Below are positions 15,783 to 36,643 of a stretch of DNA of 64,000 nt, in pieces (the stretch's first letter is position 1; each line of letters opens with the position of its first letter). The notes below the pieces were generated by a model, which saw only the letters and a program-made list of their open reading frames with translations, did not search any database and was not told the origin of the DNA. The position numbers were made by a program, and so were the translations under genes. The stretch is from a virus (lineage: Duplodnaviria > Caudoviricetes). The stretch is from the IMG/VR virus record IMGVR_UViG_3300042260_000337; one strand, given 5' to 3'.

Positions 15783-16163
15783 ATGTCTATAGAAGAAAAA
15801 AAAGATGTTGATGTAGAGCGCCTCGAAAAGGCGCTTCATTTTTCAAATACAATGCAGACCTTCAATCTGGCAAAAAATAATCTCAAAGTTAAAACTCAAA
15901 ATCTTCTTTCATATTCTCAATATGGTGGAACTTTTAATATTACCCAAGAGTTCATTGGGTTTTTAAATGCAGTTAAATCTGCTGGTAGAAAAAATATAGT
16001 AATTCTAGACAAAAACGAAACTCCAATAAAAATCGAAGATGTGTCTGACTTTTTAGATAATGTTCTTTCTGTTTATTTTGAAGTGGTAAACGAATATAAT
16101 AATGAGTATCAAAAACTAAAAAGTTCTCGTAAGATAGAAAAGTTTTTGGACATAACAAAATGA
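15783..16163 (+). CDS. Hypothetical protein (126 aa), first gene of the enzyme island
   Basis: ATG 15783 follows AGGAG; ATGA overlap with the next gene. Confidence 0.7.
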   Translation: MSIEEKKDVDVERLEKALHFSNTMQTFNLAKNNLKVKTQNLLSYSQYGGTFNITQEFIGFLNAVKSAGRKNIVILDKNETPIKIEDVSDFLDNVLSVYFEVVNEYNNEYQKLKSSRKIEKFLDITK

Positions 16164-17873: not shown

Positions 17874-18445
17874 TAAAAAGCGTTACCAACAAAACAGTTC
17901 CGCTAAGATATGTCTATTTTAGCAACGAAGGAACAATCACAAAAATATCAAGTAAAAATGACGACGAAAGTGATGACATGTGGGCAACATTTGATATTGC
18001 AGATGTAAAGCCATTCATTGATGGTTCGTTCAAGTTTTCAGATTATGTGGTAAATAAAAATACAACGGACATGGGATACTCTATTGTTAAAAAGAGAGTG
18101 GACGTAAAAAGCCGTGCGATAGAAAGCCAGATACGAAAAATTACTACTTGTAAAGATGCTGAAATTATGATATTATTAGAACAAAATAGCATAAAGATAA
18201 AAGCAGCTAAAAGCGTAATAGAGAAAGATTTATCTTCTGACCAAGAAGTTATGATTGCTGGAAAATCAAGCCATCCATTTTTTATTACGATAAAGGATAG
18301 ACCAGATTTCATTTTACAAGAAGTTTCGGTCCCATATAACATACTGTTGACAGGAGAAACATTTTCTGAGTCAATACCATATAACCATTCAGCGGTTAGT
18401 ATCTATACACGACCGTATTTTAATACATATTCATTGGAGACATAA
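17870..18445 (+). CDS. Hypothetical protein (191 aa)
   Basis: Coupled by ATGA overlap upstream and abuts the next ATG; no motif recognised. Confidence 0.65.
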   Translation: MIKSVTNKTVPLRYVYFSNEGTITKISSKNDDESDDMWATFDIADVKPFIDGSFKFSDYVVNKNTTDMGYSIVKKRVDVKSRAIESQIRKITTCKDAEIMILLEQNSIKIKAAKSVIEKDLSSDQEVMIAGKSSHPFFITIKDRPDFILQEVSVPYNILLTGETFSESIPYNHSAVSIYTRPYFNTYSLET

Positions 18446-19426
18446 ATGGCAAAAATAGTAATCGGTGACTTAGATGTGTTTTATCTAAGCTATGATGAAC
18501 CAAACAAAGAAGAACATTGGGCGAATCTTTTGCAGAAGTTCCCGTTTGCTAAACGAGTGGATGGCGTCAAAGGATTTGACAATGCACATAAAGAATGTGC
18601 AAGGCAAAGTGAAACTGAACGTTTTATTACGATTGATGGCGACAATATTGTCAGCGACGAAAAGTTCTTTGACCTTGAAATTAGTATCCCAGAAAATACA
18701 AACATGGCAAACTCAGTTCTTAGTTGGTCGGCAAAGAATGTAGTAAACGGTCTGGTGTATGGAAATGGTGGAATTAAGTGTTGGCCAGTTCAACTTGTGT
18801 TGGACATGAAAACCCACGAAAACGCTGATAACGAATCAAAGAAGTTAGACTTCTGTTGGGATTTGAATTACATTCAAATGAACAATGTCTACTCACATGT
18901 GTTCAATGCTGGTTCTCCATTTCAGGCGTTCCGTTCAGGTTATCGTGAAGGTGTAAAGATGTCTCTGGATCAAGGACATGTTGTTCCAGCAAAGCAGTTC
19001 AAAAAACGTATATGGCCAAAGAACTATGAGCGTCTTTTGACTTGGTGCAATATAGGAGCAGACGTTGAAAATGGACTATGGGCCATATACGGCGCAAGAT
19101 TGGGATGCTTGGAAACTAATATAACAAAGTCGCTTCCAATTGATGGTATATCAAACTATGAATGGTTTAAGGATTATTTTGACGCTGAAATTCTTCCAGA
19201 ATTTAAAAATGGCGATGAGTATTGTAATAAAACCAAAGTTCACTGGAGCTACGATAAACTGTATGATGCCACACTTGATGTTGGCGACCAATTGATGGAT
19301 TCATTAGCAATGGAACTATGCGACCCGACTCCTGAGATGTCTGCGTTCTTCAAACGAGTTTATGTGAACCCACCACGGGTGGCAAACCCAATAGCCACCG
19401 AAAAACAAACTGGATGGGACAAGTAA
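18446..19426 (+). CDS. GT-A-like glycosyltransferase, paralog of the C-terminal domain of 40951-43392
   Basis: 'FYLSYDEPN', 'AKRVDGVKGFDNAHK', 'IDGDN' (DxD), 'NGLVYGNGGIKCWP', 'PFQAFRSGYRE'. Confidence 0.6.
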   Translation: MAKIVIGDLDVFYLSYDEPNKEEHWANLLQKFPFAKRVDGVKGFDNAHKECARQSETERFITIDGDNIVSDEKFFDLEISIPENTNMANSVLSWSAKNVVNGLVYGNGGIKCWPVQLVLDMKTHENADNESKKLDFCWDLNYIQMNNVYSHVFNAGSPFQAFRSGYREGVKMSLDQGHVVPAKQFKKRIWPKNYERLLTWCNIGADVENGLWAIYGARLGCLETNITKSLPIDGISNYEWFKDYFDAEILPEFKNGDEYCNKTKVHWSYDKLYDATLDVGDQLMDSLAMELCDPTPEMSAFFKRVYVNPPRVANPIATEKQTGWDK

Positions 19427-21012
19427 TGAGTAAAACTCTAGATGATTTTAACTGGGAACGGCAAAAAGGAAGTAATGACATAATATCGTCACATTCTAAT
19501 GTCGAAAATGTAAAAGTATTGCTTGATAGCAAGGGACCAGGATTTTGCCTAGCAAAATTCAAGCAAGTGACACTTCATTTGGGAACTGGGTTGGTGCATT
19601 CATGCCATCACCCTAGTCCCCATAAGATTGACAAAACCGAGTTAGAAAACAACGTAATGACATTATTCAATACGTCAAGATTGAAACAAGTTCGCAAGCA
19701 AATGCTAAACGGAGAAAGACCTCGCGAATGCGACTATTGTTGGCGCATTGAAGATAACAAAAGCACCAGCGACCGTCATTTCAAGAGTGTTGAGCCATGG
19801 GCGATTGGCGACCATGACAAAATTGCGTCATACACTGGCGACGAGGATATATTTCCCTCATATCTTGAGGTTGATTTTAGTAACGTATGTAACCTACAAT
19901 GCACTTATTGTGGACCAGAGTTCAGTTCAAAATGGGTTGAAGACCTTAAACATAACGGTCCATTGAAAGTTTTAGAGGGAACTCCAAGCGAAAGTTGGGT
20001 TCAGGGCTGGCAAGACTTAGAAACGCTAAACATAAAAAATCGTGATGTCAACCCTTATATTGATGCATTTTGGGAATGGTGGCCATCTGCATATCCACAT
20101 CTAAAACATTACCGAATTACGGGCGGTGAACCTCTGATGAGTAAAGAAACCTTCCGCAGTATGGATTGGTTTATAGAGAACCCAAACCCAAATCTTGAGT
20201 TCAGTATCAATACAAATCTTTCTGTTCCCGATAAATTGTGGGAAAAATTTGTTGAAAAGTTAAAGTTACTGAATGATGGTAAAACTGTTGCAAAGATTAC
20301 GGTTTACACCAGTGTTGAAGGATGGGGTGCAGCCGCTGAGTATGCAAGAACTGGTCTGGATTTTGAACTCTTTAAGCGTAGATTTGAAGAATTGGCTTCT
20401 ATAGGAAACGTCCGTTGTGTGATTATGGCCGCTTTCAATATATTTAGTGTCACTACATTTCAGAAACTACTTGAATGGGTGTATGAGTTAAAATGCAAGC
20501 ATAATACTAATGTTGGAGCAATAGGGATGGAAAAAGAAACTGGGTATGCGTTAGCATCTCCTAGTTTATCAGACCGTGAAACTCACAATCCAACTCTTGC
20601 TCGTTCATACGTAGTGGGGCTTGATATTCCATATTTGAGAAGTCCTGCCATGTTGGATGCACACAATATTTCGCATGAGTTGGTTGAAAAGTATTTGATA
20701 CCATCACTAGACTACATGGCAAGCCATGCTGCATGGGATTCTTGGAGTAATCATCAAGGATTTGAACGTCACGAAATTGAAAAACTTCGTAGAATTGTTG
20801 TTCATCGTATGTATCATAACAGAAAGAACGACCCAACCGACAGCCATTTTGAGACTCTTAAACAGCGGGCAATGTTTTACGACTTTGTAAATGAAAACGA
20901 CAAGCGCAGAGGGTCAAACTTTTTGAACTCGTTTCCTGAAATGACTGAGTTCTACCAGTTGTGTGAAGCCGCGAAAAAAGAGTTTATCTCGCTTCTTGGA
21001 AATAAACAGTAA
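19426..21012 (+). CDS. Radical SAM protein 1 with N-terminal twitch-type domain
   Basis: CxxxCxxC 'CNLQCTYC', 'ITGGEPL'; N-terminal 'FCLAKF...SCHH...CDYCW'. The start at 19426 (TAATG overlap) is preferred over 19414. Confidence 0.9.
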   Translation: MSKTLDDFNWERQKGSNDIISSHSNVENVKVLLDSKGPGFCLAKFKQVTLHLGTGLVHSCHHPSPHKIDKTELENNVMTLFNTSRLKQVRKQMLNGERPRECDYCWRIEDNKSTSDRHFKSVEPWAIGDHDKIASYTGDEDIFPSYLEVDFSNVCNLQCTYCGPEFSSKWVEDLKHNGPLKVLEGTPSESWVQGWQDLETLNIKNRDVNPYIDAFWEWWPSAYPHLKHYRITGGEPLMSKETFRSMDWFIENPNPNLEFSINTNLSVPDKLWEKFVEKLKLLNDGKTVAKITVYTSVEGWGAAAEYARTGLDFELFKRRFEELASIGNVRCVIMAAFNIFSVTTFQKLLEWVYELKCKHNTNVGAIGMEKETGYALASPSLSDRETHNPTLARSYVVGLDIPYLRSPAMLDAHNISHELVEKYLIPSLDYMASHAAWDSWSNHQGFERHEIEKLRRIVVHRMYHNRKNDPTDSHFETLKQRAMFYDFVNENDKRRGSNFLNSFPEMTEFYQLCEAAKKEFISLLGNKQ

Positions 21013-24497: not shown

Positions 24498-24920
24498 CTT
24501 TATCATGGTATAGTTTATGTTGTGCTTGAACATCCATACCATTAAGAATTCCTCCATTTTCCATTCTTCATTCTTGACCGCATGTAATGGGGTATTAACA
24601 AGATTGTTTACTGAATGAACCCATCTTGAAAATGTTGTCATTTTGATAAAGGTCATAAATGAATCTGCGTAAAATGTATTATAATTGTCAATAAAGCATA
24701 CCGTGTTTTTTTCTGCTCCATATATATAATCGGTGCGATTTTTTTCTGAAATATTATCTAATGAAAAACTTCTTGGTGAGCATATGACTCCCTTTACTTG
24801 AAGTTTTGTTTTTAGGGTTTCGCTGCTGATATTTTTCATTGCAAGTTGCCATGCTTTTTTATAATGGTTCGAATCTATTCTTGATTCTGGAATTATCCCT
24901 GTTATATATTGTTCAACCAT
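24483..24920 (-). CDS. Hypothetical protein (145 aa), possibly related to the C-terminal half of the 'RYD' family
   Basis: Overlaps the stop of 24913-25884 by 8 nt. Its C-terminal 'EEFLMVWMFKHNI' resembles 'HELIYDIFAKNNI' in 31514-32350. Confidence 0.55.
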   Translation of the reverse strand: MVEQYITGIIPESRIDSNHYKKAWQLAMKNISSETLKTKLQVKGVICSPRSFSLDNISEKNRTDYIYGAEKNTVCFIDNYNTFYADSFMTFIKMTTFSRWVHSVNNLVNTPLHAVKNEEWKMEEFLMVWMFKHNINYTMIKSIAT

Positions 24921-25884
24921 TGTTCCAATAGCTTCCTATTTTTATAAAATCGTCGTTGTCGTTTGGGTTAAGTTCTTTTATTTCTTTATTTGGTCTTGCA
25001 ACAATCATATGTATTTCGTCATGAATATCATTGATAAGTCTTTCTTCAATATTATTCATAGTTCCTCCGTCTTTCCATCTTTCTGAAATGCCTGGTGTTC
25101 TTATAATTGGAACTGAGATCGGACTTCCAAGTCTTCCGAATAGAACATGGAAGTTCATAAAGTCCCTAAATGCTTCATACTTTGGAAATGAGGTGTTTCC
25201 GTATATAGAAGTTTTTTTATGCATATAATCAATCATCTCATAGCATATTCTATCTGCCGCCGCCCCTGTAAATACAATCAACAAGTCATTTATCATATTA
25301 CAAAACATCGTATAGCGCCCAGGGTCGTTTCCTACGTATGCGTGGTTGGATGCGGGACTTATAATAGAATCTGGATCATTTGGCCAAACTTTTAAGTCAT
25401 CTGACGATTTTATTTTTTCTATTAGTTGTGGTATATAATCCATTGGCCTAAAGATTACATCATATCTTAGCATTATCACAGCGTCATAAAATATACCAGT
25501 CTCGGCCTCATATTTCTGTTTTAACAAAAGGCTATCAATCACCCCCGCTGGGGACAATACGCCATGATGATTGAACTCTGTTCTTTCTTTGTTTTCATTT
25601 TGTGTGATTAACTCAAACGGGTCAGTTACAAAATGAATACTTTTTGGATTCAATACATCTGTTATGGTTTTTCTAATATGGTCAACCTCATCATCATTTA
25701 TTGTTTCAACGCCCATCTCCATCAAGCGTCTTGATGCGTGAAATGATAGGCTGTTTTTTGTTGAACAAAATATGTCTATGTTTTCTACATTTATATTGTC
25801 GATTATAGATTTTAAATGTGGCAGACAAACGTCTCCTGAACGATATTGGCCATAAAAACATATAGCCAAGTTTACTATATTCAT
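24913..25884 (-). CDS. 'CxxGQxR/RYD' family glycosyltransferase-like protein (paralog 1)
   Basis: 'NLAICFYGQYR' and 'YDAVIMLRYDVIF'; GGAG RBS; GATAAATA box at 25904-25911. Confidence 0.55.
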   Translation of the reverse strand: MNIVNLAICFYGQYRSGDVCLPHLKSIIDNINVENIDIFCSTKNSLSFHASRRLMEMGVETINDDEVDHIRKTITDVLNPKSIHFVTDPFELITQNENKERTEFNHHGVLSPAGVIDSLLLKQKYEAETGIFYDAVIMLRYDVIFRPMDYIPQLIEKIKSSDDLKVWPNDPDSIISPASNHAYVGNDPGRYTMFCNMINDLLIVFTGAAADRICYEMIDYMHKKTSIYGNTSFPKYEAFRDFMNFHVLFGRLGSPISVPIIRTPGISERWKDGGTMNNIEERLINDIHDEIHMIVARPNKEIKELNPNDNDDFIKIGSYWNNG

Positions 25885-25902: not shown

Positions 25903-26880
25903 TTATTTATCTTGGGTTGTAATCCATATACTCATTATTTTGTCAAAGTCATCTTCGTTTGATGGGTTCATATTATTGATGTCTGGATGTGGCCTGACTA
26001 GAGCAAACATTGGCTGAGTTTTTAAGTTGCAATTCGCTCTTTCATCAAAGTTATGTATGTCACCACTTGCTTCATTTTTATTTTTTGGATACTTGGTGAT
26101 ATGCGGGGCATCTATATGATGGAGCGAAATTCTATTTGCTAGATGTGTTAGCATACTGTGGCAATCATACATATGTTTGTATTTACTATACTTATGATTT
26201 TCATTGGTATATACACCAACAACAGTATCAACTAAGTTGACAAGTTCGTAACACAACCTGTCTGCGCCCGAACCAGTAAATGCAATAAATAAATCTGCAA
26301 TAGGATTTGGAAGAATGCTATATGGATGTGTTACATTCATTAAAAATGCGTCATTTATGATTCCCGCTATTATCGAATCTGGGTCGTTGGGCCATATCTT
26401 CAAATCATCTTCTTTTTGCATCTGGTATATGAATTTTTGTATGTAATCAATCGGTCTTATCATTATATCATATCTCATCAAAATTACGGCATCATAAAAC
26501 ATTTCATTCTCTGCTTCATATTGCTGTTTTAACAAAATAGAATCGATGATGCCAGTGAATACATAAAAATCTTTGCGAACATCTGAGTTCATTCTTTCTA
26601 TATCGTCCACTAGGACATTTATTCTTTTAGGAGAGAGTAATTTTTTTAAGGTGTTGACTGTTTTTTCAATTTCGCTGGCATCAACTGAATATACTGAGTT
26701 TATATCAATTTCAGAAATTGACCCATCTGCGGTATGATATGAAACTGTATCTTTTACTGAACAAAATATGTCAACGTTGACATTTTTTATTTGAGTGAGC
26801 ACATCTTTCAAATGCGGAACACATATGTCGCCCGTTCTGTATTGACCATAAAAACAAATTGCAAGATTAGTTATTTTCAT
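25903..26880 (-). CDS. 'CxxGQxR/RYD' family glycosyltransferase-like protein (paralog 2)
   Basis: 'NLAICFYGQYR' and 'YDAVILMRYDIMI'; closely similar to paralog 1. Start is 26880 or 26886. Confidence 0.55.
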   Translation of the reverse strand: MKITNLAICFYGQYRTGDICVPHLKDVLTQIKNVNVDIFCSVKDTVSYHTADGSISEIDINSVYSVDASEIEKTVNTLKKLLSPKRINVLVDDIERMNSDVRKDFYVFTGIIDSILLKQQYEAENEMFYDAVILMRYDIMIRPIDYIQKFIYQMQKEDDLKIWPNDPDSIIAGIINDAFLMNVTHPYSILPNPIADLFIAFTGSGADRLCYELVNLVDTVVGVYTNENHKYSKYKHMYDCHSMLTHLANRISLHHIDAPHITKYPKNKNEASGDIHNFDERANCNLKTQPMFALVRPHPDINNMNPSNEDDFDKIMSIWITTQDK

Positions 26881-26885
26881 ATTCA

Positions 26886-26913
26886 TATTTATGTCAAAAT
26901 AAATGCATAAATA
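26886..26913. promoter_or_regulatory. Back-to-back T4-late-like boxes CATAAATA (minus 26886-26893; plus 26906-26913)
   Basis: Both boxes lie in the divergent intergenic gap. The minus box is 5 nt from ATG 26880. Confidence 0.65.
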
Positions 26914-26934: not shown

Positions 26935-28236
26935 TTGACACAACCAATAGATTATAAGAATAACAAAAGAATATGTTCTCTTGCGTGGACACACCTTCAT
27001 GTGACCACTACAGGAAGGGTTGCGCCTTGTGGGCAGTATGTTAATTCAAAATCCCCAGACATAAAACTTGCGAACATACAGGATAGTTCATTGGATGAAT
27101 GTATCAATAGTTCTGGGATGAAATACATTCGTTCCATGATGCTACAGAATAAGCCGAATGAGATGTGTTCATTGTGCGAATACAAAATGCAACAGGGTAT
27201 TGAATCTACTAAAGACAGGTTCAATGCATTATATTTGGAAAAAACTAAATTTGCCATTGAAGCCACACGAGCCGATGGCCATATTGATATAGATGACTAC
27301 AAACCTGTGTTCTTTGATGTTAGATTTGGAAATCTTTGTAATCTTCGATGCCGAATGTGCAACTGGGAAGCAAGTAGTGCATGGTTTGATGAAACAAAGG
27401 AAATAGGAAAACAAAACCTAGTGACCTTTGATACTATAAGATTGGATGATTCAAGCCCAAAATTTGTAGCAAATGGAGCGTATGATAAGATAGAACATCT
27501 TTTGCAGTATGCAGAAAAAATGTATTTTGCTGGAGGTGAACCACTTCTCATGGAAGAACACTACCGAGCACTTCAATATCTAATTGATTCGGGAAAATCC
27601 AAAGATGTCGAATTGCATTACAGCACCAACTATACTATTTCAAAATACAAAGGCAAACTGGTTGCAGATTATTGGAAAGAGTTCAAACAAGTAATAGTGG
27701 CTGGTAGCGTGGATGGCATCGAAGAAGTTTCTGACTACATACGAACAGGATCGTCGTGGGAAAAGATGAAACAGGTTGTATCTGAAATGAAACCGCAGGG
27801 CGACGAATACAATAACATAACCCTGTCTCCATGTTTTTCTGTAAGTATAATGAATATATTTCATAGCCCAAGATTTTTTAAATGGTGTTTTGAAAATGGA
27901 TGGTTTGAAAAAAATCTATCCGTAATCGCCATTAATTATGTAGATTATCCTCCAGATTTGAGTATAAAATATTTGCCTTATGCAGCAAAGAAAACTGTAG
28001 AAGAAGAATATGTTGATTTATCAAGATGGCTAATTGAAAATGGACACCCATTGAGTGCTAAAGTTGTAAACGAAATTATAACGTATATGAATGGGGGAGA
28101 TATCACACAAGCTGATATCGATTATAGAATGAGTCAAGCGGTAAACAGAATGGATGTGTATGACAAAACATCGCATCTCAATTGGAAAGAAACACTACCA
28201 GAGTTGAAACATGCTCTTTTAGCATATATAAAATAG
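26935..28236 (+). CDS. Radical SAM protein 4 with N-terminal twitch-type domain, paralog of rSAM3
   Basis: 'CNLRCRMC', 'YFAGGEPL'; N-terminal 'CSLAW...PCG...CSLC'. TTG start after AGGA. Confidence 0.9.
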   Translation: MTQPIDYKNNKRICSLAWTHLHVTTTGRVAPCGQYVNSKSPDIKLANIQDSSLDECINSSGMKYIRSMMLQNKPNEMCSLCEYKMQQGIESTKDRFNALYLEKTKFAIEATRADGHIDIDDYKPVFFDVRFGNLCNLRCRMCNWEASSAWFDETKEIGKQNLVTFDTIRLDDSSPKFVANGAYDKIEHLLQYAEKMYFAGGEPLLMEEHYRALQYLIDSGKSKDVELHYSTNYTISKYKGKLVADYWKEFKQVIVAGSVDGIEEVSDYIRTGSSWEKMKQVVSEMKPQGDEYNNITLSPCFSVSIMNIFHSPRFFKWCFENGWFEKNLSVIAINYVDYPPDLSIKYLPYAAKKTVEEEYVDLSRWLIENGHPLSAKVVNEIITYMNGGDITQADIDYRMSQAVNRMDVYDKTSHLNWKETLPELKHALLAYIK

Positions 28237-28239
28237 TTC

Positions 28240-28268
28240 TTGAAGTTATTATATAAATTTGGTATAAT
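28240..28268 (+). promoter_or_regulatory. Sigma70-type promoter TTGAAG-17bp-TATAAT
   Basis: -35 at 28240-28245 and -10 at 28263-28268, followed by GAGG RBS and ATG 28299. Confidence 0.7.
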
Positions 28269-28298
28269 GTAATAAAATATTCAAAAAAGAGGTATCCA

Positions 28299-29339
28299 AT
28301 GAATACATATAGAGTCACATATCGTGTTGAGAGTAGCAATATAGAAAAAGCTGCTGACGCCATAGTATTGGGGCAAAGTGTCGGTAATCCAGACATTCGT
28401 TCTTCATATGAAGAAGCAGACGGAATACAACAAAGCAAAGCGGAATTGATTTCCATCAACGGCAACGAGGTAGTGATTGACTTCAAGTGGAGAAACTTGC
28501 ACTCCACGACTGATATTGGTCAAATGCTTTGCACCATAAATGGCGGGCAGAGCGATATCGCACTGTTGGAATCATGCAGAATCGTTGGTCTTGAACTGAA
28601 CCAACCGTTTGTAAAGAAGTCTCCGCACAAGACATTAGTCAAAAGAAATCGTCCAGCAATTGGTAGTATTGTGAAACCAAAAGCTGGACTTACCTCCGAA
28701 CAATTGCGAGACATCACAACACAAATGTGTGATGGCGGAATTGACTTTATTAAAGAAGATGAAATTTTGGCTGACGCTGCGTATCTTCCACTCAGACAGA
28801 GATTGGATATTGTTCAGCCAATTATGGAAAAATATCCTGAAACCGTGTATACATATTGCACAAATGGAAATCCAGAACATCTAGTTTCTCAGCTTGATAT
28901 GGTGAAAGAGTGCAATGGCGATGGAGTTCATATTAATTTCTGGAGCGGCCTTGGGGCTTATTCTGATAGCAACCAACGAGGGTTCTTCACACATTTCCAA
29001 CGAAGTGGAATTAGAGTATTGACTGATCCTAGAAATCCGTGGGGAATTGATTGGCCTGTGTTGGTCAAAATGGCAATTTATCAAGGCATTGATAGTATAC
29101 ATGTTGGTATGATTGGCGGGTATTATCCTGGCGACCATCAAGAGGTTAGAGATGCAGTCAAGCTATGTCAAGAACACAATGTGTGGGCTGCGTTAAGCTG
29201 TGGAATGACACCAGACATAGCGAAGTCAATTCGTGATGAGATTGGAGACCATTGGCTTGCAAATGTTGGCGGATGGTTGCACACTGGGGACAGCATCGAA
29301 CAGAAAATAACTGAATTGCGGATGGCATTTGATGCTTAA
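28299..29339 (+). CDS. RuBisCO-like protein (form IV / RLP)
   Basis: 'SIVKPKAGL' (K175/K177 equivalents), 'GGIDFIKEDE' (carbamylated Lys motif), 'DSIHVG', 'LSCG', 'NVGG'. Confidence 0.9.
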   Translation: MNTYRVTYRVESSNIEKAADAIVLGQSVGNPDIRSSYEEADGIQQSKAELISINGNEVVIDFKWRNLHSTTDIGQMLCTINGGQSDIALLESCRIVGLELNQPFVKKSPHKTLVKRNRPAIGSIVKPKAGLTSEQLRDITTQMCDGGIDFIKEDEILADAAYLPLRQRLDIVQPIMEKYPETVYTYCTNGNPEHLVSQLDMVKECNGDGVHINFWSGLGAYSDSNQRGFFTHFQRSGIRVLTDPRNPWGIDWPVLVKMAIYQGIDSIHVGMIGGYYPGDHQEVRDAVKLCQEHNVWAALSCGMTPDIAKSIRDEIGDHWLANVGGWLHTGDSIEQKITELRMAFDA

Positions 29340-30030
29340 TGTATTGCAGTTGTGTGCTGGTAAAGGGTCAAGGTTTGCAGAATACTCGCAAACCCCTAAA
29401 CCATTTTTAGATGTTCACGGCGACCCAATGTTTGTCGCTGCAATCAAATCTTTGAATTTGGGAAATGATGTTCGCCATCATTTCCTATTTCAAGAACGTG
29501 CGCTAACACAATACAAACCTTCGCAATATGTTGATGGATTGTTTTATGGCATAGACCATTACACTGATGGCGCAGCTACAAGCGCCGCATATGTTATAAG
29601 AAACAATAAGTTTCGACACGAACCATGGTTGATAGTTGACTGTGACTTTATAGTATCATACGATTCTACAACATTCAAATCCGTATACAATCACACGAAT
29701 TGTATTTTCGTTCAAAACCGTTCATTTGATATAAAAAGTAGCTATAGCTGCGTTGACTCAAACATGAATATATTAGGTGTGGCAGAAAAGCAACCTATCA
29801 GTAGATATCGCAACAGCGGTCAATACCATTGGGTTTCTGGCGATGTTTTTATCCAGTCGTATGATTTTTATACAGATAATGGATTGGTGTCTCTTGGTGA
29901 ATACTATACTGCTCCACTATATAACTATGCAATACAGAATGGAATACCAACCATGGCGATTGAGGTTGATAGTTTTACTCCGATAGGAACGCCTATGGAT
30001 TACGAAAGGTATATACATGAGATTCGCTAA
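29332..30030 (+). CDS. Sugar-phosphate nucleotidyltransferase (NTP_transferase fold)
   Basis: 'LCAGKGSRF', 'PKPFLDV', 'TDGAATS', 'VDCD', 'VAEKQPIS', 'GTPMDY'. Confidence 0.85.
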   Translation: MLNVLQLCAGKGSRFAEYSQTPKPFLDVHGDPMFVAAIKSLNLGNDVRHHFLFQERALTQYKPSQYVDGLFYGIDHYTDGAATSAAYVIRNNKFRHEPWLIVDCDFIVSYDSTTFKSVYNHTNCIFVQNRSFDIKSSYSCVDSNMNILGVAEKQPISRYRNSGQYHWVSGDVFIQSYDFYTDNGLVSLGEYYTAPLYNYAIQNGIPTMAIEVDSFTPIGTPMDYERYIHEIR

Positions 30031-30340
30031 ATTATCTGATTTCAAAGGTGGGTGGGTGATTGGAGACTTTGAACCCACTATGCTAAAAACAGACCAGTTT
30101 GAGGTAGCAGTTTTGCACCACACGGCTGGAAAACAAATAGAAAAACACTATCAAGTTATCGCTACTGAATACAATGTCATGATTAGTGGCAAAATGAATG
30201 TAAATGGAACTATCGTCACGTCAGGTGACGTATTTACATATGAACCAATGGAAATTACAGAAGTTGAAGTTCTGGAAGATACAGTGGTCATATGTGTCAA
30301 AACCCCAAGTATTCCAAACGATAAAGTGGTAATTGACTGA
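30017..30340 (+). CDS. Small cupin-fold protein
   Basis: 'KGGWVIGDFEP', 'HYQVIATEYN', 'CVKTPS'; 107 aa. Confidence 0.7.
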   Translation: MRFAKLSDFKGGWVIGDFEPTMLKTDQFEVAVLHHTAGKQIEKHYQVIATEYNVMISGKMNVNGTIVTSGDVFTYEPMEITEVEVLEDTVVICVKTPSIPNDKVVID

Positions 30341-30780
30341 TGCCAATTTTTATCGCACATCGTGGAAATACGAATGGTATAGAATTATCGTTTGAGAATA
30401 GAATAGACTATCTTGGTCACGCACTATCTATTGGGTATGGAATAGAATGTGATGTATGCTACTGGAAAGACAAATATTATTTTGGGCATGATGCGCCGCA
30501 AGAAGAGATAGATACTAATATCCTGTTAGCAGATAATTCATTTTGTCATGCGAAAGATATGCAATCTTTGCTGTATCTGAACTCAATTGGTGCTAATTGT
30601 TTTTGGCATGAAAGCGATAAAATGACATACACTAGTAAAGGAAATATATGGTGCTATCCAGGTGTATTTCCAATTTCAAAAAACGCAGTATGGCTTGATT
30701 TGTTGGGAATACCATTGCCTGAAAATATACATCATACAATATATGGTATTTGTGGAGATACATTCATAAATACCATATGA
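30340..30780 (+). CDS. Minimal GDPD/PLC-like phosphodiesterase
   Basis: 'FIAHRGN', 'IECDV', 'FGHD', 'CHAKD', 'FWHESD', 'ICGD'. Confidence 0.7.
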   Translation: MPIFIAHRGNTNGIELSFENRIDYLGHALSIGYGIECDVCYWKDKYYFGHDAPQEEIDTNILLADNSFCHAKDMQSLLYLNSIGANCFWHESDKMTYTSKGNIWCYPGVFPISKNAVWLDLLGIPLPENIHHTIYGICGDTFINTI

Positions 30781-31517
30781 ATGTAAATATTATAAGTCAA
30801 TTCATTTCTGGAAGAAGCGGTGCAAAAGTTTATTTGGCCGAAAAAAATGGTATTGTCGGTGTCTATAAAACAAACGTAAAAGACCCATATGGTGTTTACG
30901 AATTATCAAAAAAACTTCCGTTTCGGACGCCAGAGATATATGATATTTCCGATGATTCTATATTCATGGAATACATAAACGGCAGACCATTAAAAGATGT
31001 TCTAAGAGACAATGATCCTATAAAAATAGAAATAGTATCTGACTTTATATTATCTTATGTAGATTACGCATTAAATTCTTCTCTGGGAATGTATGATTTC
31101 TCAGAAATAATAAACAAAAAAATAGAACAGGTTTCTGAATTTGTTTCAACGTCATATCTTTCAAACATAAAAACCGTCTATCCAACATCAATAACCCACG
31201 GTGATTTCACGTTTGATAATATGATATATTGTGAGAACGAGGTTTGTCTGATTGACTTGTCGCCAACTCCATTTACAAGTGTATATTTTGATATGAACAA
31301 GTTGAGACAAGATTTGACTGGATATTGGTTTGTCCGACAAGAGCCTTCTTATGCTCCTTGGGTGTCGGCATGTAACAAAATATATAGCATCATAGATACT
31401 AAGCACCCTAGCATGTTTGACGATGGACTTTACAATCTGATGATTTCAAGAATACTCCCATATTGCAAGAATAATGATTTTGATTTTAATTACGTGTTGA
31501 ATATGTTAATCGGTTAA
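30777..31517 (+). CDS. Aminoglycoside/choline kinase-like phosphotransferase
   Basis: 'GRSGAKV' Gly loop, 'MEYING', 'HGDFTFDN' catalytic loop, 'LID'. ATG 30777 overlaps the upstream TGA and has CATAAATA 4 nt upstream. Confidence 0.75.
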   Translation: MNVNIISQFISGRSGAKVYLAEKNGIVGVYKTNVKDPYGVYELSKKLPFRTPEIYDISDDSIFMEYINGRPLKDVLRDNDPIKIEIVSDFILSYVDYALNSSLGMYDFSEIINKKIEQVSEFVSTSYLSNIKTVYPTSITHGDFTFDNMIYCENEVCLIDLSPTPFTSVYFDMNKLRQDLTGYWFVRQEPSYAPWVSACNKIYSIIDTKHPSMFDDGLYNLMISRILPYCKNNDFDFNYVLNMLIG

Positions 31518-32350
31518 GTTTGCGTTTTTGCCCATAAGTCTTTATATTTGAACCAAGTGTCTCTTTCAAGTATATCCAAGTGTTCTAACCCATCTCTTAC
31601 TATAGTTACGTTGACTTTTGTTTGAGATAATTCATTCTTAAACTCGTGCATTTCAATATTATTTTTGGCAAATATGTCATATATTAGCTCGTGTATATTT
31701 GTTATGGTGTCATCTAACACTCTATCAGACTGACGCCTTTTACCAAATTCCCCTACGTATTTTATAAGTTCACTTGCGAATATATCCATTGAATTACCAA
31801 TAGAAAAAAAAGCAACATCTTGTAACATTTTTATTATGTTGCCTTTTTTGTTGTAGTTTCCCATTCTGAAATGAAATACATGATTTGGATTTGTAAAGTT
31901 TTTTGCATTCATCAGGCTGTTTACAATAAAATCTAACGTTTCGTGCATTGGATATATTATTGAATCATATCGCTGTAAAATTGTTATGTCGTAATGAAAA
32001 TTATTCAATGCTTCATATTCTGATTTGAGTAGAATACTATCGGCAAATGCTAAATGTATTTTTTGTATCTTGTCATAATCGCACAGATCGTCCAATCTTT
32101 TTGGAATTATGCGCAATGACTTCGGATTGTATATTTTTGATATTTTTTCTGCAATTTCATTTGCATCATCTGTTTCAATTATACCAAGTTTTCTTTTATC
32201 AGTAAACCATTCGTAATATGTTTTAGCACTACAAAAATAATCAATTTCGTAATTTTCATTATCGTAATACTTTTTTATGTATTTTGAGGTATATTCTAAT
32301 TTTCTTGGCTGACCGTATAAACATACTGCTATTTTTATTTTTTTATTCAT
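31514..32350 (-). CDS. 'CxxGQxR/RYD' family glycosyltransferase-like protein (paralog 3)
   Basis: 'KIAVCLYGQPR' and 'YDITILQRYDSII'. Confidence 0.55.
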   Translation of the reverse strand: MNKKIKIAVCLYGQPRKLEYTSKYIKKYYDNENYEIDYFCSAKTYYEWFTDKRKLGIIETDDANEIAEKISKIYNPKSLRIIPKRLDDLCDYDKIQKIHLAFADSILLKSEYEALNNFHYDITILQRYDSIIYPMHETLDFIVNSLMNAKNFTNPNHVFHFRMGNYNKKGNIIKMLQDVAFFSIGNSMDIFASELIKYVGEFGKRRQSDRVLDDTITNIHELIYDIFAKNNIEMHEFKNELSQTKVNVTIVRDGLEHLDILERDTWFKYKDLWAKTQT

Positions 32351-32815: not shown

Positions 32816-33769
32816 TTATAAATTAGAATCTGCGATTGTTTTCAATAAGTTTGAATTTAATATGACTGGCTGTGCATGAGAATAAGATGGCGCAAAGTTT
32901 TCCGATATAAATTTATCATACATATGATCAAAGTTGAAGTCCTTTCTCATCAAAATGAATTTGTAAAACTTCGTGGTCAATATCATGTTTAGTGATATCA
33001 AACTAACATATAAGCATTGCTCAAATGCCATTCGTCTTCCAAATAATGAAATTGTCTGGTGATTGGTAATAAACATTTGTGACAACAACTTATTCATGAC
33101 CATATCTGTTTTTTCAGATTTCTTTATCACAAACCATTGGTCGCTTATTCCATTCGGTAAAACATCATCTATGTTTGTTCTTGGAAGTTTGAAATTGTCC
33201 CAAGTGCTATATGATGGTAATAATATATCTGCGTCCATTTTATCAATGTGGGTTACGACTTCTTTAAAATCAGTGTCAAAAAATGAATCGTATCTGATTT
33301 TTAGTATATAATCAAATTTTGTATTATTGCTATTTTCGTATTCACAAACTAAATTATAGGATTTCATCCAAGCATATGGCTGAGAATAATAATTACAAAA
33401 ATCTACATATGTAGCGTAATCTTTAATGTCGTTGTTGCCAGTAAAAAGGTTGTTATATTTTGAGTTTGAAAGGAATGTATTATCGTTGATAAATTTTTTT
33501 ATTTCCTCATATATTGATTTCTGTGAAATCTCTACGGTGTTTGATGGGCATCCGAGGTCCGATACTGTAATGGTTTCTTTTTCAAACGCATCGTTATTTA
33601 AAACAAATGAGTTGGTTTTAATCTGGTCTGGTAAGTTATCATTGCTCCATACCTGATAGAAAAATGTAATATCGCAATTTTTCAAATCAGAAAGTAATGG
33701 AAACACATAGTCTTTCCATTTATCATATAGATTTCTTGTATTACCAGTAACTAAAATCGCAACTTTCAT
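32816..33769 (-). CDS. 'RYD' family glycosyltransferase-like protein (paralog 4)
   Basis: 'KVAILVTGNTR', 'FDYILKIRYDSFF', 'ISDQWF'. Confidence 0.55.
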   Translation of the reverse strand: MKVAILVTGNTRNLYDKWKDYVFPLLSDLKNCDITFFYQVWSNDNLPDQIKTNSFVLNNDAFEKETITVSDLGCPSNTVEISQKSIYEEIKKFINDNTFLSNSKYNNLFTGNNDIKDYATYVDFCNYYSQPYAWMKSYNLVCEYENSNNTKFDYILKIRYDSFFDTDFKEVVTHIDKMDADILLPSYSTWDNFKLPRTNIDDVLPNGISDQWFVIKKSEKTDMVMNKLLSQMFITNHQTISLFGRRMAFEQCLYVSLISLNMILTTKFYKFILMRKDFNFDHMYDKFISENFAPSYSHAQPVILNSNLLKTIADSNL

Positions 33770-33819: not shown

Positions 33820-34851
33820 ATGAGAATAATAATACCGTGCGCTGGAAAAAGCTCCAGATTTCAAAACACCAGACCAAAATATTTGCTAACGATGCCAGAT
33901 GGCCGAATGATGTTACAGCAAGCAGCCGACCCTTACATCGAAAATGGATACCATGTAACATTTGTAGTTGTTAGAGATCATTCCGAAAAGTATGAGTCTG
34001 AGTATGCGATACGAAAGGCATACGGAGACACGGTTGATGTGGTAGTGCTTGATGATTTCACATCTGGTCCAGCCGAAACCATATACCACGTAATCAAGGA
34101 TTGGAATGATACTACATTTGCCGTGAATGACTGCGATAGCTTTTTTGATTTCACTCCAATTGAAGAAAATTATGTAGTGTATGCCGATTTAAATAATTAT
34201 CCACTGGTGAATGGCATACATGCGAAAAGTTTCATAATAAAGGATGAAACCAGAATAACAGACATAATAGAAAAAAAGATATCCAGTGGATTTATTTGTA
34301 TCGGAGGATATGGATTTAAAAGTTCATCCGACTTCATAAAAAGTTATACGCAGATAAAAGACAATGCGTCAAATGAAATATTTTTGTCTCATGTAATAAA
34401 ACAGATGATGTTAAACGGTGAAAATGTGGTAGCAATTGAAGGTTCAAATTATATTGATTGTGGAACCTACGAATCATATGTTGAAAATATGAAAAATCAT
34501 ATGGCAATCTTTTGTGATATTGATGGTATTATTTTTAAAAACCAATCCAGATACTTTAAAAATAGTCATTCAAATGAGCCAACAATAAACCCATCGGCTA
34601 TTCAATTCTTAAAAGAAAGAATTGCATTGGGTGCCACTGTGATATTTACAACTGCAAGAAAAGAAGACACACGAGATGTCACCGAAACGGCAATCAGAAA
34701 AGCAGGAATTGATAATTTTCGCATCATATATGATTTGCCACACGCCCCAAGACTACTGATAAACGATGTTCATTACTCAAACCCTTGGCCAGCCGCAAGC
34801 GCAATCAATGCTCCTCGGAATGATGATGACTTTTGGAGAATGTTTAGTTAG
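33820..34851 (+). CDS. Nucleotidyltransferase fused to a C-terminal HAD phosphatase domain
   Basis: N-terminal 'IPCAGKSSRF...PKYLL', 'GPAET', 'VNDCD'; C-terminal 'IFCDIDG' (HAD motif I), 'FTTAR', 'LIND'. Confidence 0.8.
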   Translation: MRIIIPCAGKSSRFQNTRPKYLLTMPDGRMMLQQAADPYIENGYHVTFVVVRDHSEKYESEYAIRKAYGDTVDVVVLDDFTSGPAETIYHVIKDWNDTTFAVNDCDSFFDFTPIEENYVVYADLNNYPLVNGIHAKSFIIKDETRITDIIEKKISSGFICIGGYGFKSSSDFIKSYTQIKDNASNEIFLSHVIKQMMLNGENVVAIEGSNYIDCGTYESYVENMKNHMAIFCDIDGIIFKNQSRYFKNSHSNEPTINPSAIQFLKERIALGATVIFTTARKEDTRDVTETAIRKAGIDNFRIIYDLPHAPRLLINDVHYSNPWPAASAINAPRNDDDFWRMFS

Positions 34852-35713
34852 GGTGATACCCATTGTTAGCATGTTCTGGGCCAATCCACATGCTAAAATT
34901 TTGCAATTCTTCTTGTTGCCCATCCCTATTCATATCAGTATAGTTTTCAGTTACAATCATGTTTTTTCTTAGAACTCGTTCTTCAAAATTTACAATTGTT
35001 CGTTCAAACTGTCTGCCGACCACGAAATTGTAAAATCCCTCTTCAACCCATATCAGCTTTCTTTCCGCCCCTCCAGTGTTAATAAACAGTATTTCATGCA
35101 TATTAGTGAAATCATTCAATCCACTTGGGGTAAATCCAAACCAACGGTCATTGCTTCCAATTTTGTTATACCCACCAGCAATTATATGAAAATCTTTAGT
35201 TATGAAGTTTTTCTTTGACTGGTCAATATTCATTATTACATTTGAAATTTCTGATATGAAATCATGATGATTTACTACTAAATCATATCTCCATCTTAAA
35301 ATCAAATCGTAGTTAGACAGGTCACATGAGTTGACTATTTTTTCAACTGCATAAAATTGACCCAATGTATTTACATATGAAATATACGCTGGATAATCTA
35401 CATAATAACTATTGTCGGCAGTTTCAGAAAAATCAGAATAAATGATTGATTTTGGAGATATGCGCTTTATTACTTTTTCTTGAAGTGATATGTCTTCAGT
35501 CGGAAGATATTCGTAATAGCTGTTGAATCTTATTTCTTCATCGCCATCAAAGTTTTCTGGAAATCTACGTTCATTTGTCCATAGATGCATATAATAGTCA
35601 ATATCTATGTCATACATAGAAGATAGACGTTCAAATACGCCAAACACTGCGTCAAAGTTTTTTGGATTTGTATTACACAATCCACATAACATTATTGCTA
35701 TTTTTTTTCTCAT
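34844..35713 (-). CDS. 'RYD' family glycosyltransferase-like protein (paralog 5)
   Basis: Probable start ATG 35713 (MRKKIAIMLCG); 'YDLILRWRYDLVV', 'SNDRWF'. Confidence 0.55.
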   Translation of the reverse strand: MRKKIAIMLCGLCNTNPKNFDAVFGVFERLSSMYDIDIDYYMHLWTNERRFPENFDGDEEIRFNSYYEYLPTEDISLQEKVIKRISPKSIIYSDFSETADNSYYVDYPAYISYVNTLGQFYAVEKIVNSCDLSNYDLILRWRYDLVVNHHDFISEISNVIMNIDQSKKNFITKDFHIIAGGYNKIGSNDRWFGFTPSGLNDFTNMHEILFINTGGAERKLIWVEEGFYNFVVGRQFERTIVNFEERVLRKNMIVTENYTDMNRDGQQEELQNFSMWIGPEHANNGYHPN

Positions 35714-35718
35714 AAAAC

Positions 35719-35732
35719 TATTTATATAAATA
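35719..35732. promoter_or_regulatory. Perfect palindrome TATTTATATAAATA: two overlapping T4-late consensus boxes (TATAAATA on each strand)
   Basis: The minus box 35719-35726 is 5 nt from ATG 35713. The plus box 35725-35732 is 5 nt from ATG 35738. Confidence 0.75.
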
Positions 35733-35737
35733 TGAAT

Positions 35738-36643
35738 ATGATAGAATATGCATACATAGAAACCACAAACTACTGTAACCTTCAATGCACTTTTTGTAAC
35801 CGGCATGAAGTGATTGGTGCGTTACAGCATATGTCTATACCAAAGTTTATTGAACTGATGGAGAAGATAAAGCATCATCCAATCAATACCGCCAAGCTAA
35901 TGGGAATGGGCGAACCATTCATGCATCCAAAGTTCAACGAGATTTGTAGAATATTCAAGCAATATTTTCCAGATGCATTTTTGATTGTAGCTACTAACTG
36001 TCAATACAAAATACGTCCTTGGTTTGAAGAGTGCCTTCAACACATAGACATGCTGTATCTCAGCATTGATGGATACGAAGATAGTTATGAGACATATCGC
36101 CCGCCAAGCAAGTGGGAAAAGCTAATGCAATTCTTAGAACAAATGAAAGATATACCTCGCCATGGTTGTCGTATAGTGTGTAACTATGTTGTCAACCCAG
36201 GAAACGTGTCGGACATTCAATTAGTGCATGATAACATAGTGATTCCATATAAACTGGAGCAGCTTAGATTGAACATTGCACAAGATTGGAGTGAAGACCG
36301 TAGTATGCCTGGTGGATATACCAAAGAGCAGCTTGAATATTTGCAATCCGAATGGAAAGACTGTATACAAGGTAAGAGCGAATGGAATTATTCAGATTGC
36401 TTCTGGGTAAAAAACGGACTTTACGTCACAGTTGAAGGACGAGTTTTGGCTTGCTGTATGAACACGGCGGCAAAACAGTTTGGTAATATTTTTGAAGATA
36501 GTATAGAGAACATTCAAAACGGAGATGATTTCCAAACAGTAAAAAATGGTTGTGCGACAAACAATCCTACATCTCATTGTAAAAATTGTAGTTACAAAGA
36601 ATTGGTCCCAATGCTAAAACAAATAGGAATACACAATGCCTAA
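35738..36643 (+). CDS. Radical SAM protein 5 with C-terminal SPASM/twitch domain
   Basis: 'CNLQCTFC', 'GMGEPF'; C-terminal 'CFW...VTVEGRVLACC...CKNC'. Start is 35732 or 35738. Confidence 0.9.
   Translation: MIEYAYIETTNYCNLQCTFCNRHEVIGALQHMSIPKFIELMEKIKHHPINTAKLMGMGEPFMHPKFNEICRIFKQYFPDAFLIVATNCQYKIRPWFEECLQHIDMLYLSIDGYEDSYETYRPPSKWEKLMQFLEQMKDIPRHGCRIVCNYVVNPGNVSDIQLVHDNIVIPYKLEQLRLNIAQDWSEDRSMPGGYTKEQLEYLQSEWKDCIQGKSEWNYSDCFWVKNGLYVTVEGRVLACCMNTAAKQFGNIFEDSIENIQNGDDFQTVKNGCATNNPTSHCKNCSYKELVPMLKQIGIHNA

Follow-up and report, generated by a model that had tools for sequence, protein, structure and literature searches.

The window analysed here is a 64,000-nucleotide stretch of DNA carried by a marine T4-type jumbo phage. 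Positions 28299 to 31517 hold five translationally coupled genes, which encode, in order, a RuBisCO-like protein (RLP), a nucleotidyltransferase (NT), a cupin, a miniature GDPD-like phosphodiesterase (mini-GDPD) and a kinase. The features of this cassette are as follows:

28240..28268, + strand: sigma70-type promoter, TTGAAG-17 nt-TGgTATAAT, a 10/12 match with an extended -10
28287..28292, + strand: Shine-Dalgarno sequence AAGAGG of the RLP gene
28299..29339, + strand: RLP, 346 aa, assigned to the 'form IV-like' clade, with the predicted carbamyl-lysine/Mg site kept and with Q60, G123, Q294 and Y334
29329 (TTG) or 29332 (ATG)..30030, + strand: sugar-1-phosphate-type NT, 232-233 aa; its subfamily is uncharacterised, and PDB 4evw is the closest relative with a solved structure
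30017..30340, + strand: single-domain cupin, 107 aa, with an HxH(x)4E(x)6G-type motif in which the second His is Q in the window copy
30340..30780, + strand: mini-GDPD, 146 aa, with HRG, EN, ExD and HD motifs
30777..31517, + strand: APH/RIO-fold small-molecule kinase, 246 aa from ATG; the frame is open from TTG 30750, and ATG 30777 is the likelier start

Neighbouring genes overlap by 8-11 nt (RLP/NT), 14 nt (NT/cupin), 1 nt (cupin/mini-GDPD) and 4 nt (mini-GDPD/kinase), which confirms the overlapping or abutting arrangement described in the original prediction. The promoter that it placed before the cassette was also found, in the 62-nt gap between the upstream gene and RLP. In this AT-rich region, promoter-like matches occur about as often as chance predicts (29 observed, 28.4 expected). 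The architecture and position of this promoter are conserved in two diverged relatives, L001 (RLP 72% identical; TTGACA-17-TGtTATTAT) and L145 (RLP 85% identical; TTGAAA-17-TGtTATATT).

The RLP scores 99.4 bits against PF00016 (cut-off 30.1), which places it in the RuBisCO large-subunit superfamily. Its AF2 model (pLDDT 90.9) has the two-domain fold of an N-terminal alpha/beta domain and a TIM barrel, and 342 of its 346 residues superpose on residues 33-426 of spinach RuBisCO with a Z of about 33.5. Comparison with RLPs and with RuBisCO forms I, II/III and III by VIA-align gave Z values of 33-34.5 and an rmsd of 2.7-2.9 Å over 342/346 residues. RuBisCO numbering was transferred by profile alignment to RuBisCO chains. 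The residues kept are K175/K177 (K126/K128 in the RLP), K201-E-D203-E204 (K152-E-D154-E155), R295 (R235), H327 (H268), S379 (S300) and G403/404 (G324/325), whereas E60 is replaced by Q26, H294 by Q234, K334 by Y275, N123 by G83 and H298 by I238. The earlier manual assignments, namely retained K175/K177, KEDE, R295, H327 and S379 with E60Q, H294Q and no K334, are all correct in this alignment. Across 136 homologues from phages and cellular genomes this signature does not vary, including the carbamylatable Lys201, the Mg ligands D203/E204 and K175, except that position 295 is R or K and position 298 is variable.

Judged by these residues, the carbamylated-lysine/Mg2+ enolisation machinery (K175, K177, K201, D203, E204) is kept, as are the residues at both phosphate sites (R/K295, H327, S379, G381, G403/404). 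All those that serve only to add CO2, to hydrate or to cleave the C-C bond are lost (E60Q, N123G, H294Q, K334Y). E60, N123, H294 and the loop-6 K334, which mark the carboxylating RuBisCOs of forms I-III, are absent from the RLP family, and the protein, lacking the residues needed for carboxylation, is predicted to be unable to fix CO2.

Two characterised RLP types were tried and rejected. The DK-MTP-1-P enolase MtnW is excluded by its equivalog models (TIGR03332, 32.4 against 513.6 bits; NF007095, 45.6 against 409 bits), and the RLP has no methionine-salvage gene context (mtnK/A/B/X/D); its neighbours are NT, cupin, mini-GDPD, GT-like and radical SAM genes. The 3-oxo-isoapionate-4-phosphate decarboxylase OiaX (NF042437) is excluded at 74.3 against 700 bits. 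In the family profile, PDB 2oek, which like 2zvi is an MtnW/YkrW methionine-salvage RLP, scores 88 bits and falls below the form II/III and form III RuBisCOs at 138 bits. Relatives occur on 385 IMG/VR contigs, and a Beckwithbacteria copy (L106) falls within the family of the window. The RLP most probably belongs to the 'form IV-like' clade of phages and Beckwithbacteria of Jaffe et al. (Mol Biol Evol 2019, PMC6389311), a placement that rests on the T4-type phage carrying it, the Beckwithbacteria member and the lack of a preferred classical RLP model. That report left the function of the clade open and did not describe its gene neighbourhood. The RLP itself is not new, because phage RLPs of this clade had already been reported there (PMC6389311).

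The NT carries the GxGxR...KP motif as LCAGKGSRF...PKP. The window copy reaches 21.9 bits against Pfam (PF00483/PF12804 fold), below the gathering threshold of 27 bits. The family profile matches PDB 4evw at E 2e-35 and GMPP, RmlA and GlmU at 1e-13 to 1e-8, and it also matches HddC and MurU among the sugar-1-phosphate nucleotidyltransferases. All 23 of 23 members match sugar-1-phosphate NT models, in every case under the cut-offs of those models. The cupin was recognised by its language-model features, which match Cupin_2 clusters, and by a weak profile match in the PDB. The four mini-GDPD motifs are invariant in 17 homologues, and its Atlas model has a TM of 0.77 to a 225-aa GDPD cluster. Its profile matches GDPD chains no better than E 1e-3, over the first 55 residues; there is no match to Pfam PF03009, and 146 aa is too short for a full barrel. 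The kinase has the catalytic loop HGDxxxxN as HGDFTFDN, with 24.0 bits for PF01163 (cut-off 22) and 16.4 for PF01636 (cut-off 23.2). Its nearest Atlas clusters are of the APH/RIO/choline-kinase type, and its PDB matches all have E > 0.05.

The cassette is flanked by the following genes:

24913..25884, - strand: DUF7796-like / GT-A-like paralogue
25903..26886, - strand: DUF7796-like / GT-A-like paralogue
26935..28236, + strand: radical SAM enzyme with an N-terminal twitch domain (NF033640), the upstream neighbour, taken as context and not as core
31514..32350, - strand: DUF7796-like protein of GT-A-like fold, a candidate for transferring the product; its gene converges on the kinase gene and overlaps it by 4 nt
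32816..33769, - strand: DUF7796-like paralogue, from an iterated profile match
33820..34851, + strand: second NT, fused to a HAD phosphatase domain (context)
34844..35806, - strand: DUF7796-like paralogue, from an iterated profile match

The DUF7796 model is of no more than medium confidence (pLDDT 76, TM 0.45-0.6). Foldseek matched it to GT-A enzymes in the PDB (E 1e-6, TM 0.42-0.47) and to WavE, TOD1/MUCI70 and GT entries in AFDB (E 1e-12 to 1e-8, TM 0.5-0.6). R127-x-D129 and D178 are invariant, and the classical DxD is absent.

Synteny was compared across 27 phage RLP lineages with no more than 75% identity between lineages. RLP and NT lie within 3 kb of each other in 26 of these, a cupin is near the RLP in 23, a mini-GDPD in 19 (within 3 kb in 15) and a GT-A-like DUF7796 gene in 23. 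Among 156 NT matches, 150 lie no more than 3 kb from an RLP, compared with 38% of the flanking DNA, although these loci are not independent. The conserved core is RLP and NT, with cupin, mini-GDPD and the GT-A-like DUF7796 protein. Natural fusions also occur: the cupin follows the NT C-terminally in one clade (L066/74/75/79/80), mini-GDPD is fused to NT in L127, and there are HAD-NT fusions. The kinase is limited to the window, L001 and L145, that is, to 2/27 phage lineages, and is a clade-specific addition to the module. The five-gene set put forward earlier is not conserved as such, because the kinase occurs only in the clade of the window and is missing from 25/27 lineages. Phosphorylation by this kinase is thus a lineage-specific entry step at best, and in most lineages no dedicated means of placing phosphate on C1 was seen.

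The module also occurs in 36 cellular lineages, including complete chromosomes of Ca. Pelagibacter, Turneriella and a Verrucomicrobium, and Legionella isolates. It lies in polysaccharide/LPS loci of SAR11, Legionella, CPR bacteria and DPANN archaea, next to genes for GT2, GT1 and GT9 enzymes, methyltransferases, GDP-mannose dehydratase/epimerases, a Wzx-like flippase, Bac_transf, WavE, DegT and LicD. Culturable carriers are Legionella drozanskii, L. maceachernii, L. nautarum, Azospirillum oleiclasticum and Nonomuraea rosea. The search for the cassette in bacterial glycan loci, suggested as a check on the original prediction, recovered the core module there, but not the kinase.

In Legionella, a LicD family gene (E 3e-43) is divergently adjacent to RLP-NT, and cupin and GDPD are absent. 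This LicD is more easily reconciled with a phospho-alcohol (CDP-X) donor than with a glycosyl one. Models for such phosphodiester substituents are the decorations with phosphocholine, ribitol-phosphate and glycerol-phosphate. The RLP could accordingly supply a phosphorylated polyol, ketose or acid, which the NT would convert to CDP-X or NDP-X, and a LicD-type enzyme or a reversed mini-GDPD would install X-phosphate as a phosphodiester on LPS, capsule or virion glycan. Two further observations point the same way: a GDPD-type phosphodiesterase is a conserved partner and, on a Micrarchaeota contig, forms one protein with the NT, and some NT members weakly match inositol-1-phosphate cytidylyltransferase and IspD. 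However, the NT family is nearest to RmlA, GMPP, GlmU and MurU and not to IspD, TarI or LicC, LicD accompanies the module in one cellular lineage only, and the usual transferase-like partner is GT-A-like. Phosphodiester decoration is regarded as unlikely.

SDR dehydratase/epimerase genes occur near the module in 6/27 phage lineages and several cellular loci. The cupins RmlC and FdtA of NDP-sugar pathways act on NDP-4-keto sugars, and by this precedent the NT could act first on a common sugar-1-phosphate, as RmlA does before RmlC or FdtA. RLP and cupin would then epimerise or isomerise an NDP-keto-sugar, with the nucleotide diphosphate in one phosphate site of the RLP. This order of events is distinctly improbable, since no keto-forming dehydratase or oxidoreductase is a constant partner, and the NT+cupin fusion has the domain order of PMI-GMP enzymes, in which the cupin substrate is a sugar phosphate. 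In addition, the characterised RuBisCO-superfamily enzymes known to us all act on small phosphate esters and none on nucleotide sugars.

In the phage glycan island, about 14 genes code for radical SAM enzymes, whose by-products are 5'-deoxyadenosine and methionine. The cassette might recycle the resulting 5-deoxyribose or methylthioribose, given that its parts resemble those of salvage routes known from B. subtilis (the mtn genes) and R. rubrum (the MTA-isoprenoid shunt). The kinase would correspond to MtnK, the RLP to MtnW or the R. rubrum MTRu-1-P isomerase, the cupin to MtnD or MTXu-5-P methylsulfurylase, and a HAD phosphatase in L001 to MtnX. The radical SAM gene is directly upstream of the RLP in the window, L001 and L145, and in the L006 clade the RLP has a MetK gene nearby. 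Salvage is nevertheless very unlikely. The RLP reaches only 32-46 bits on MtnW models with cut-offs of 409-514, the universal partner NT has no place in such routes, the kinase is confined to two lineages and HAD is rare. The N-twitch radical SAM gene is within 10 kb of the RLP in only 8/27 lineages, and no radical SAM genes were found in the scanned flanks of Legionella (LicD, membrane and amino-acid-metabolism genes) and SAR11 (LPS-type genes).

The preferred reading, to which we give a probability of about 0.6, is that the cassette is the donor-synthesis module of the large glycan island of the phage, in which the RLP enolises a keto-sugar phosphate and the NT activates the product. The gene context gives good support to a biosynthetic role, that of producing a nucleotide-activated donor, because the RLP is linked to NT, cupin, mini-GDPD and GT-like genes both in phages and in glycan loci. 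The earlier proposal of a biosynthetic RLP making an activated sugar agrees with the gene context in the 27 phage lineages and the cellular glycan loci, but its kinase step is lineage-specific at best, and nothing in the analysis speaks for a branched-chain sugar.

The pathway may be pictured as follows. A phosphorylated keto-sugar or close analogue would be drawn from host metabolism, and the RLP would most likely enolise it and thereby isomerise or epimerise it. The metal-type cupin would probably carry out a neighbouring isomerase step, like the cupin domain of bifunctional PMI-GMP enzymes. Phosphate must reach the anomeric position, probably through the APH-fold kinase in the clade of the window and through a PMM-type mutase or HAD fusions in others. 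The NT would then form the NDP-activated product, and the GT-A-like DUF7796 proteins (LicD in Legionella) would transfer it onto a glycan. The mini-GDPD would serve some phosphodiester step. The active-site signature, the conserved synteny, the fusions and the glycan-locus setting are direct results of the analysis, from which we infer the order of these steps, the substrate class and the target glycan, on the virion or the host surface.

More broadly, it can be hypothesized, at roughly even odds, that the RLP branch with Q60/G123/Q294/Y334 and an intact carbamyl-lysine/Mg site is anabolic. Its product would be an unusual phosphate of a sugar or sugar-like compound, activated with a nucleotide and built into surface or virion glycans, and this role would be common to jumbo phages, SAR11, Legionella, CPR bacteria and DPANN archaea. 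In a concrete version, the RLP would interconvert a 1-phospho-ketose and an aldose-1-phosphate, or epimerise a ketose (bis)phosphate, via an enediolate.

To our knowledge, every RLP characterised so far works in catabolism or salvage, as in methionine salvage, the MTA-isoprenoid shunt and the breakdown of apiose and acid sugars. The proposed role, if true, would for the first time give the RuBisCO fold a function in biosynthesis directed at glycans. It would give glycobiology a new sugar donor and the RuBisCO active site a new evolutionary use, and it would bear on surface-glycan variation in marine jumbo phages and SAR11. The 'form IV-like' phage clade has been without an assigned function since 2018, and its constant partners make a role directly testable. 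The module consists of four small soluble enzymes that can be reconstituted, and its carriers include abundant or culturable organisms.

Several known systems resemble the module in part. MtnW/YkrW shares the fold, the carbamyl-lysine/Mg2+ site, the lack of carboxylase activity and, by our reading of the window RLP, probably enolisation, whereas the window RLP is about 60 residues shorter and lacks mtn gene context. Bifunctional type II phosphomannose isomerase/GDP-mannose pyrophosphorylase (PMI-GMP) enzymes of the ManC/AlgA/XanB type also have an NT with a small cupin behind it, one clade here fuses the two in that N-to-C order, and the role would likewise be donor synthesis for a surface polysaccharide; however, the module sequences are far under any family cut-off, and RLP and mini-GDPD are added. 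The salvage systems AmgK-MurU, LicA-LicC and NahK pair an anomeric kinase with an NT; here too an APH-fold kinase is encoded with an NT, and the window NT weakly matches MurU. In contrast, the kinase here is not a general partner, and no equivalog threshold is reached. OiaX and OiaC are described as RLPs of apiose catabolism (Carter et al. 2018, as cited in PMC6389311). They act on a phosphorylated oxo-sugar acid, and OiaX is the second-best NCBIfam match of the window RLP; unlike the module, they are catabolic and lie among transporters, kinases and dehydrogenases, with no NT or GT genes. The closest relatives are the form IV-like RLPs of Jaffe et al. (PMC6389311), which are likewise divergent, including in key residues, group with Beckwithbacteria and occur in many environments on phage contigs of myovirus type and of >200 kb. 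To that description the present analysis adds the constant NT, cupin, mini-GDPD and GT-A-like partners with their fusions, and the spread of the module to glycan loci of SAR11, Legionella, Turneriella, Verrucomicrobia and DPANN archaea.

Five plus-strand genes at 28299-31517 encode a RuBisCO-like protein (RLP; 346 aa, 28299-29339), a nucleotidyltransferase (NT), a cupin, a small GDPD-like phosphodiesterase (mini-GDPD) and a kinase. As the original prediction described, the genes overlap or abut, with stop/start overlaps of 8-11, 14, 1 and 4 nt. The first gene, RLP, has a strong ribosome-binding site (AAGAGG), and the 62-nt gap on its 5' side contains TTGAAG-17 nt-TGgTATAAT. Promoter-like matches were not enriched in this AT-rich region (29 vs 28.4 expected), and the scan alone is not significant. 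The same layout of -35 element, 17-nt spacer and TGn-extended -10 element is found at the same RLP-upstream site in two diverged relatives, L001 (RLP 72% identical) and L145 (RLP 85% identical). The cassette's own sigma70-type promoter, which had also been predicted, is therefore accepted on positional conservation and not on scan statistics. The T4 late-promoter box TATAAATA is absent from this gap, where the best match reached 7/8 positions. An exact box is present at 35719-35732 as one palindrome, read on both strands between divergent genes, and within 15-59 kb it occurs elsewhere only at 17699.

The window comes from the genome of a marine, uncultured jumbo phage of T4 type, and a thymidylate synthase and a carbamoyltransferase are also encoded in it. 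A 3134-aa ORF (3792-13196, plus strand) lies between a baseplate wedge gene directly before it (21-3788) and the glycan island after it. No RLP relative was found by tblastn in the INPHARED phage records, window positions 1-20000 had no DNA match there, and a close relative of this phage is absent from that collection. A scan of the window for Rfam families and tRNAs found none. At 60000-64000, the GC content reaches 0.43-0.50, up from about 0.37, and long ORFs occupy both strands. The minus-strand ORFs (61071-62456 and 62526-63653) mirror ORFs on the plus strand and match a PHROG of HNH endonuclease and a PHROG of ATPase.

The product of the first gene is homologous to the large subunit of RuBisCO (PF00016, 99.4 bits vs a cut-off of 30.1). 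Its AF2 model (pLDDT 90.9) superposes 342 of 346 residues on residues 33-426 of spinach RuBisCO (Z about 33.5, rmsd 2.7-2.8 A), indicating that the RLP is a compacted large subunit; about 30 N-terminal residues, about 50 C-terminal residues and part of the loop length are missing. In profile alignments to RuBisCO chains, K175, K177, K201-E-D203-E204, R295, H327, S379 and G403/404 (form I numbering) are kept, while E60->Q, H294->Q, K334->Y, N123->G and H298->I are replaced. Every residue named in the original prediction was confirmed by these alignments. Across 136 homologues from phages and cells, Q60, P65, G123, K175, K177, K201, D203, E204, Q294, Y334, S379, C380, G381 and G403 are invariant. 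H327 (134/136) and G404 (133/136) are nearly so, and position 295 is R or K in all sequences except one. Judged from this conservation, the active site of the family is predicted to be catalytic and under constraint, with the enolisation apparatus and residues at both phosphate sites retained. None of the residues linked by established enzymology of RuBisCO to CO2 addition, hydration and cleavage is retained.

The RLP could be assigned to no RuBisCO form by structural search, in which all forms and RLPs tie at Z 33-34.5; its placement relative to the classical forms is based on HMM scores, PDB profile ranking and a published tree. Identity as MtnW or OiaX was ruled out, since the RLP scored 32-46 bits with MtnW models (cut-offs 409-514) and 74 bits with the OiaX model (cut-off 700); the expectation that it is not an MtnW-type enolase was thus borne out. 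Its relatives number over 1,700 among database proteins and are carried by 385 IMG/VR contigs. On myovirus-type and 200-kb phage contigs, some 80 'form IV-like' RLPs of unknown function, clustering with Beckwithbacteria, had been described by Jaffe et al. (PMC6389311). The family of the window RLP contains a Beckwithbacteria copy and is therefore the same clade, of which this RLP is a new member. In a midpoint-rooted tree of family members only, the window pairs with L001 inside a phage clade. Literature searches turned up only the GOS paper besides Jaffe et al.; no description of an RLP-NT module was found in the open-access literature, and a paywalled account is possible.

The product of the second gene is a nucleotidyltransferase carrying the GxGxR...KP signature. 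When 23 orthologues were combined into a profile, its best match was 4evw, an uncharacterised Vibrio 'NDP-sugar pyrophosphorylase' (E 2e-35), followed by mannose-1-P guanylyltransferases, RmlA, HddC, GlmU and MurU. These matches point to a sugar-1-phosphate type of NT, though a separate subfamily. The third product is a cupin of 107 aa whose motif resembles HxH(x)4E(x)6G. The earlier term 'minimal phosphodiesterase' is apt for the fourth product (146 aa), in which the GDPD motifs HRG, EN, ExD and HD are invariant and whose Atlas model reaches TM 0.77 against GDPD models. The fifth gene, which most likely starts at ATG 30777, encodes a putative small-molecule kinase of APH/RIO/choline-kinase-like type; it contains an HGDxxxxN loop and had no significant match to PDB sequences.

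Five minus-strand paralogues related to DUF7796 are interleaved with the plus-strand genes of putative donor synthesis:

24913-25884, minus strand, DUF7796-related paralogue
25903-26886, minus strand, DUF7796-related paralogue
31514-32350, minus strand, DUF7796-related paralogue, convergent with the kinase gene
32816-33769, minus strand, DUF7796-related paralogue
34844-35806, minus strand, DUF7796-related paralogue

A DUF7796-like model (pLDDT 76) resembles GT-A glycosyltransferases and members of the WavE and TOD1/MUCI70 families; the corresponding profile had no sequence match in the PDB.

The recurrence of the cassette was examined in 89 phage loci, whose ORFs were searched using an iterated profile for each window protein. 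Among 27 RLP lineages of no more than 75% mutual identity, NT occurs within 3 kb of RLP in 26, cupin in 23, mini-GDPD in 19 (15 within 3 kb), the DUF7796-related family in 23 and the kinase in two, the window and L001. L145, another member of the window's clade, has the five-gene order of the window. NT matches lie at most 3 kb from RLP in 150 of 156 cases, a range holding 38% of the flanking DNA; the loci are interrelated, which inflates the significance of co-occurrence and makes the lineage counts the fairer measure. The predicted five-gene unit is therefore specific to one clade, as the kinase counts reveal, whereas its RLP-NT core recurs. The conserved module is RLP and NT, usually with cupin, mini-GDPD and a DUF7796-like protein. 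Clades other than that of the window have a PMM-type mutase and a phosphoribosyltransferase adjoining RLP. In L006/L007 (8001-16200), an RLP clade at 40% identity, RLP is followed by these two genes, phosphoribosyltransferase first, and by two radical SAM (rSAM) enzymes, a carbamoyltransferase and a phage-encoded SAM synthetase (MetK).

When cellular genomes were scanned, with one genome taken for each species, another 36 lineages proved to have the module. Among the carriers are Turneriella and Verrucomicrobia chromosomes, the complete chromosome of a Ca. Pelagibacter, Legionella drozanskii, L. maceachernii, L. nautarum, Azospirillum oleiclasticum, Nonomuraea rosea, Francisellaceae, Elusimicrobia, Planctomycetes, Patescibacteria and many Woese-/Nanoarchaeota. 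The module lies in surface-polysaccharide loci there, flanked by genes for GT2, GT1 and GT9 enzymes, methyltransferases, GDP-mannose dehydratase/epimerases, a Wzx-type flippase, Bac_transf, WavE, DegT and carbamoyltransferase. In the Ca. Pelagibacter sp. chromosome (L101, 6810-9122), mini-GDPD, NT and RLP are flanked by a 2-hydroxyacid dehydrogenase, a GT9 heptosyltransferase and a CMP-sugar synthetase-like gene. This SAR11 RLP nests beside phage contigs in the family tree, which suggests exchange between phage and host.

The cassette is read as a donor-synthesis module, with a probability of roughly 0.6. Beside the observed gene identities, active-site signature, synteny, fusions and glycan context, we infer the substrate, the target and the sequence in which the steps occur. 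RLP, with cupin, would use enolisation to convert a keto-sugar phosphate or analogue. The phosphate would be moved to the anomeric carbon, probably by the APH-fold kinase in the window's clade and elsewhere by a mutase, HAD solutions or host enzymes. NT would form the NDP derivative, and GT-A-like DUF7796 proteins, or LicD, would transfer the activated product. Nothing was found in support of the branched-chain sugar in the original prediction. The reverse order, in which NT acts first and RLP and cupin then tailor an NDP-keto-sugar, is improbable.

In Legionella/Tatlockia, a LicD-family gene is divergent from and adjoins RLP-NT, and both cupin and mini-GDPD are absent:

L139:6773-7621, minus strand, LicD-family phosphotransferase gene (E 3e-43); also in L135, L136 and L138

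This arrangement hints at possible transfer of the product as a phospho-substituent in these genomes. A phospho-alcohol (CDP-X) decoration put on by LicD or a GDPD-type enzyme is an unlikely alternative to the donor-synthesis reading. A Mtn-like set salvaging radical-SAM by-products is highly improbable: NT is universal, the kinase is rare and the Legionella locus has no rSAM, all of which count against it.

The cassette's partners are also connected by natural fusions (NT+cupin, NT+GDPD and HAD+NT):

Window 33820-34851, plus strand, second NT, fused to a HAD (acid-phosphatase/PNKP-type) domain
L127:9947-11464, minus strand, NT(38-267)+GDPD-like(290-501) fusion, Micrarchaeota MAG contig
L066:8841-9956, minus strand, NT(1-243)+cupin(248-351) fusion; also in L074, L075, L079 and L080, a single phage/GVMAG clade

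HAD_2+NT fusions also occur in L056 and in the Pelagibacter (SAR11) chromosome (L101:686-2056). A 706-aa 'RLP-NT fusion' of Azospirillum (L110) was rejected, as RLP and the long ORF occupy separate reading frames of a high-GC contig and no Pfam family matched that ORF; no RLP fusion is claimed. The NT+cupin fusion shares its domain order with the bifunctional PMI-GMP enzymes.
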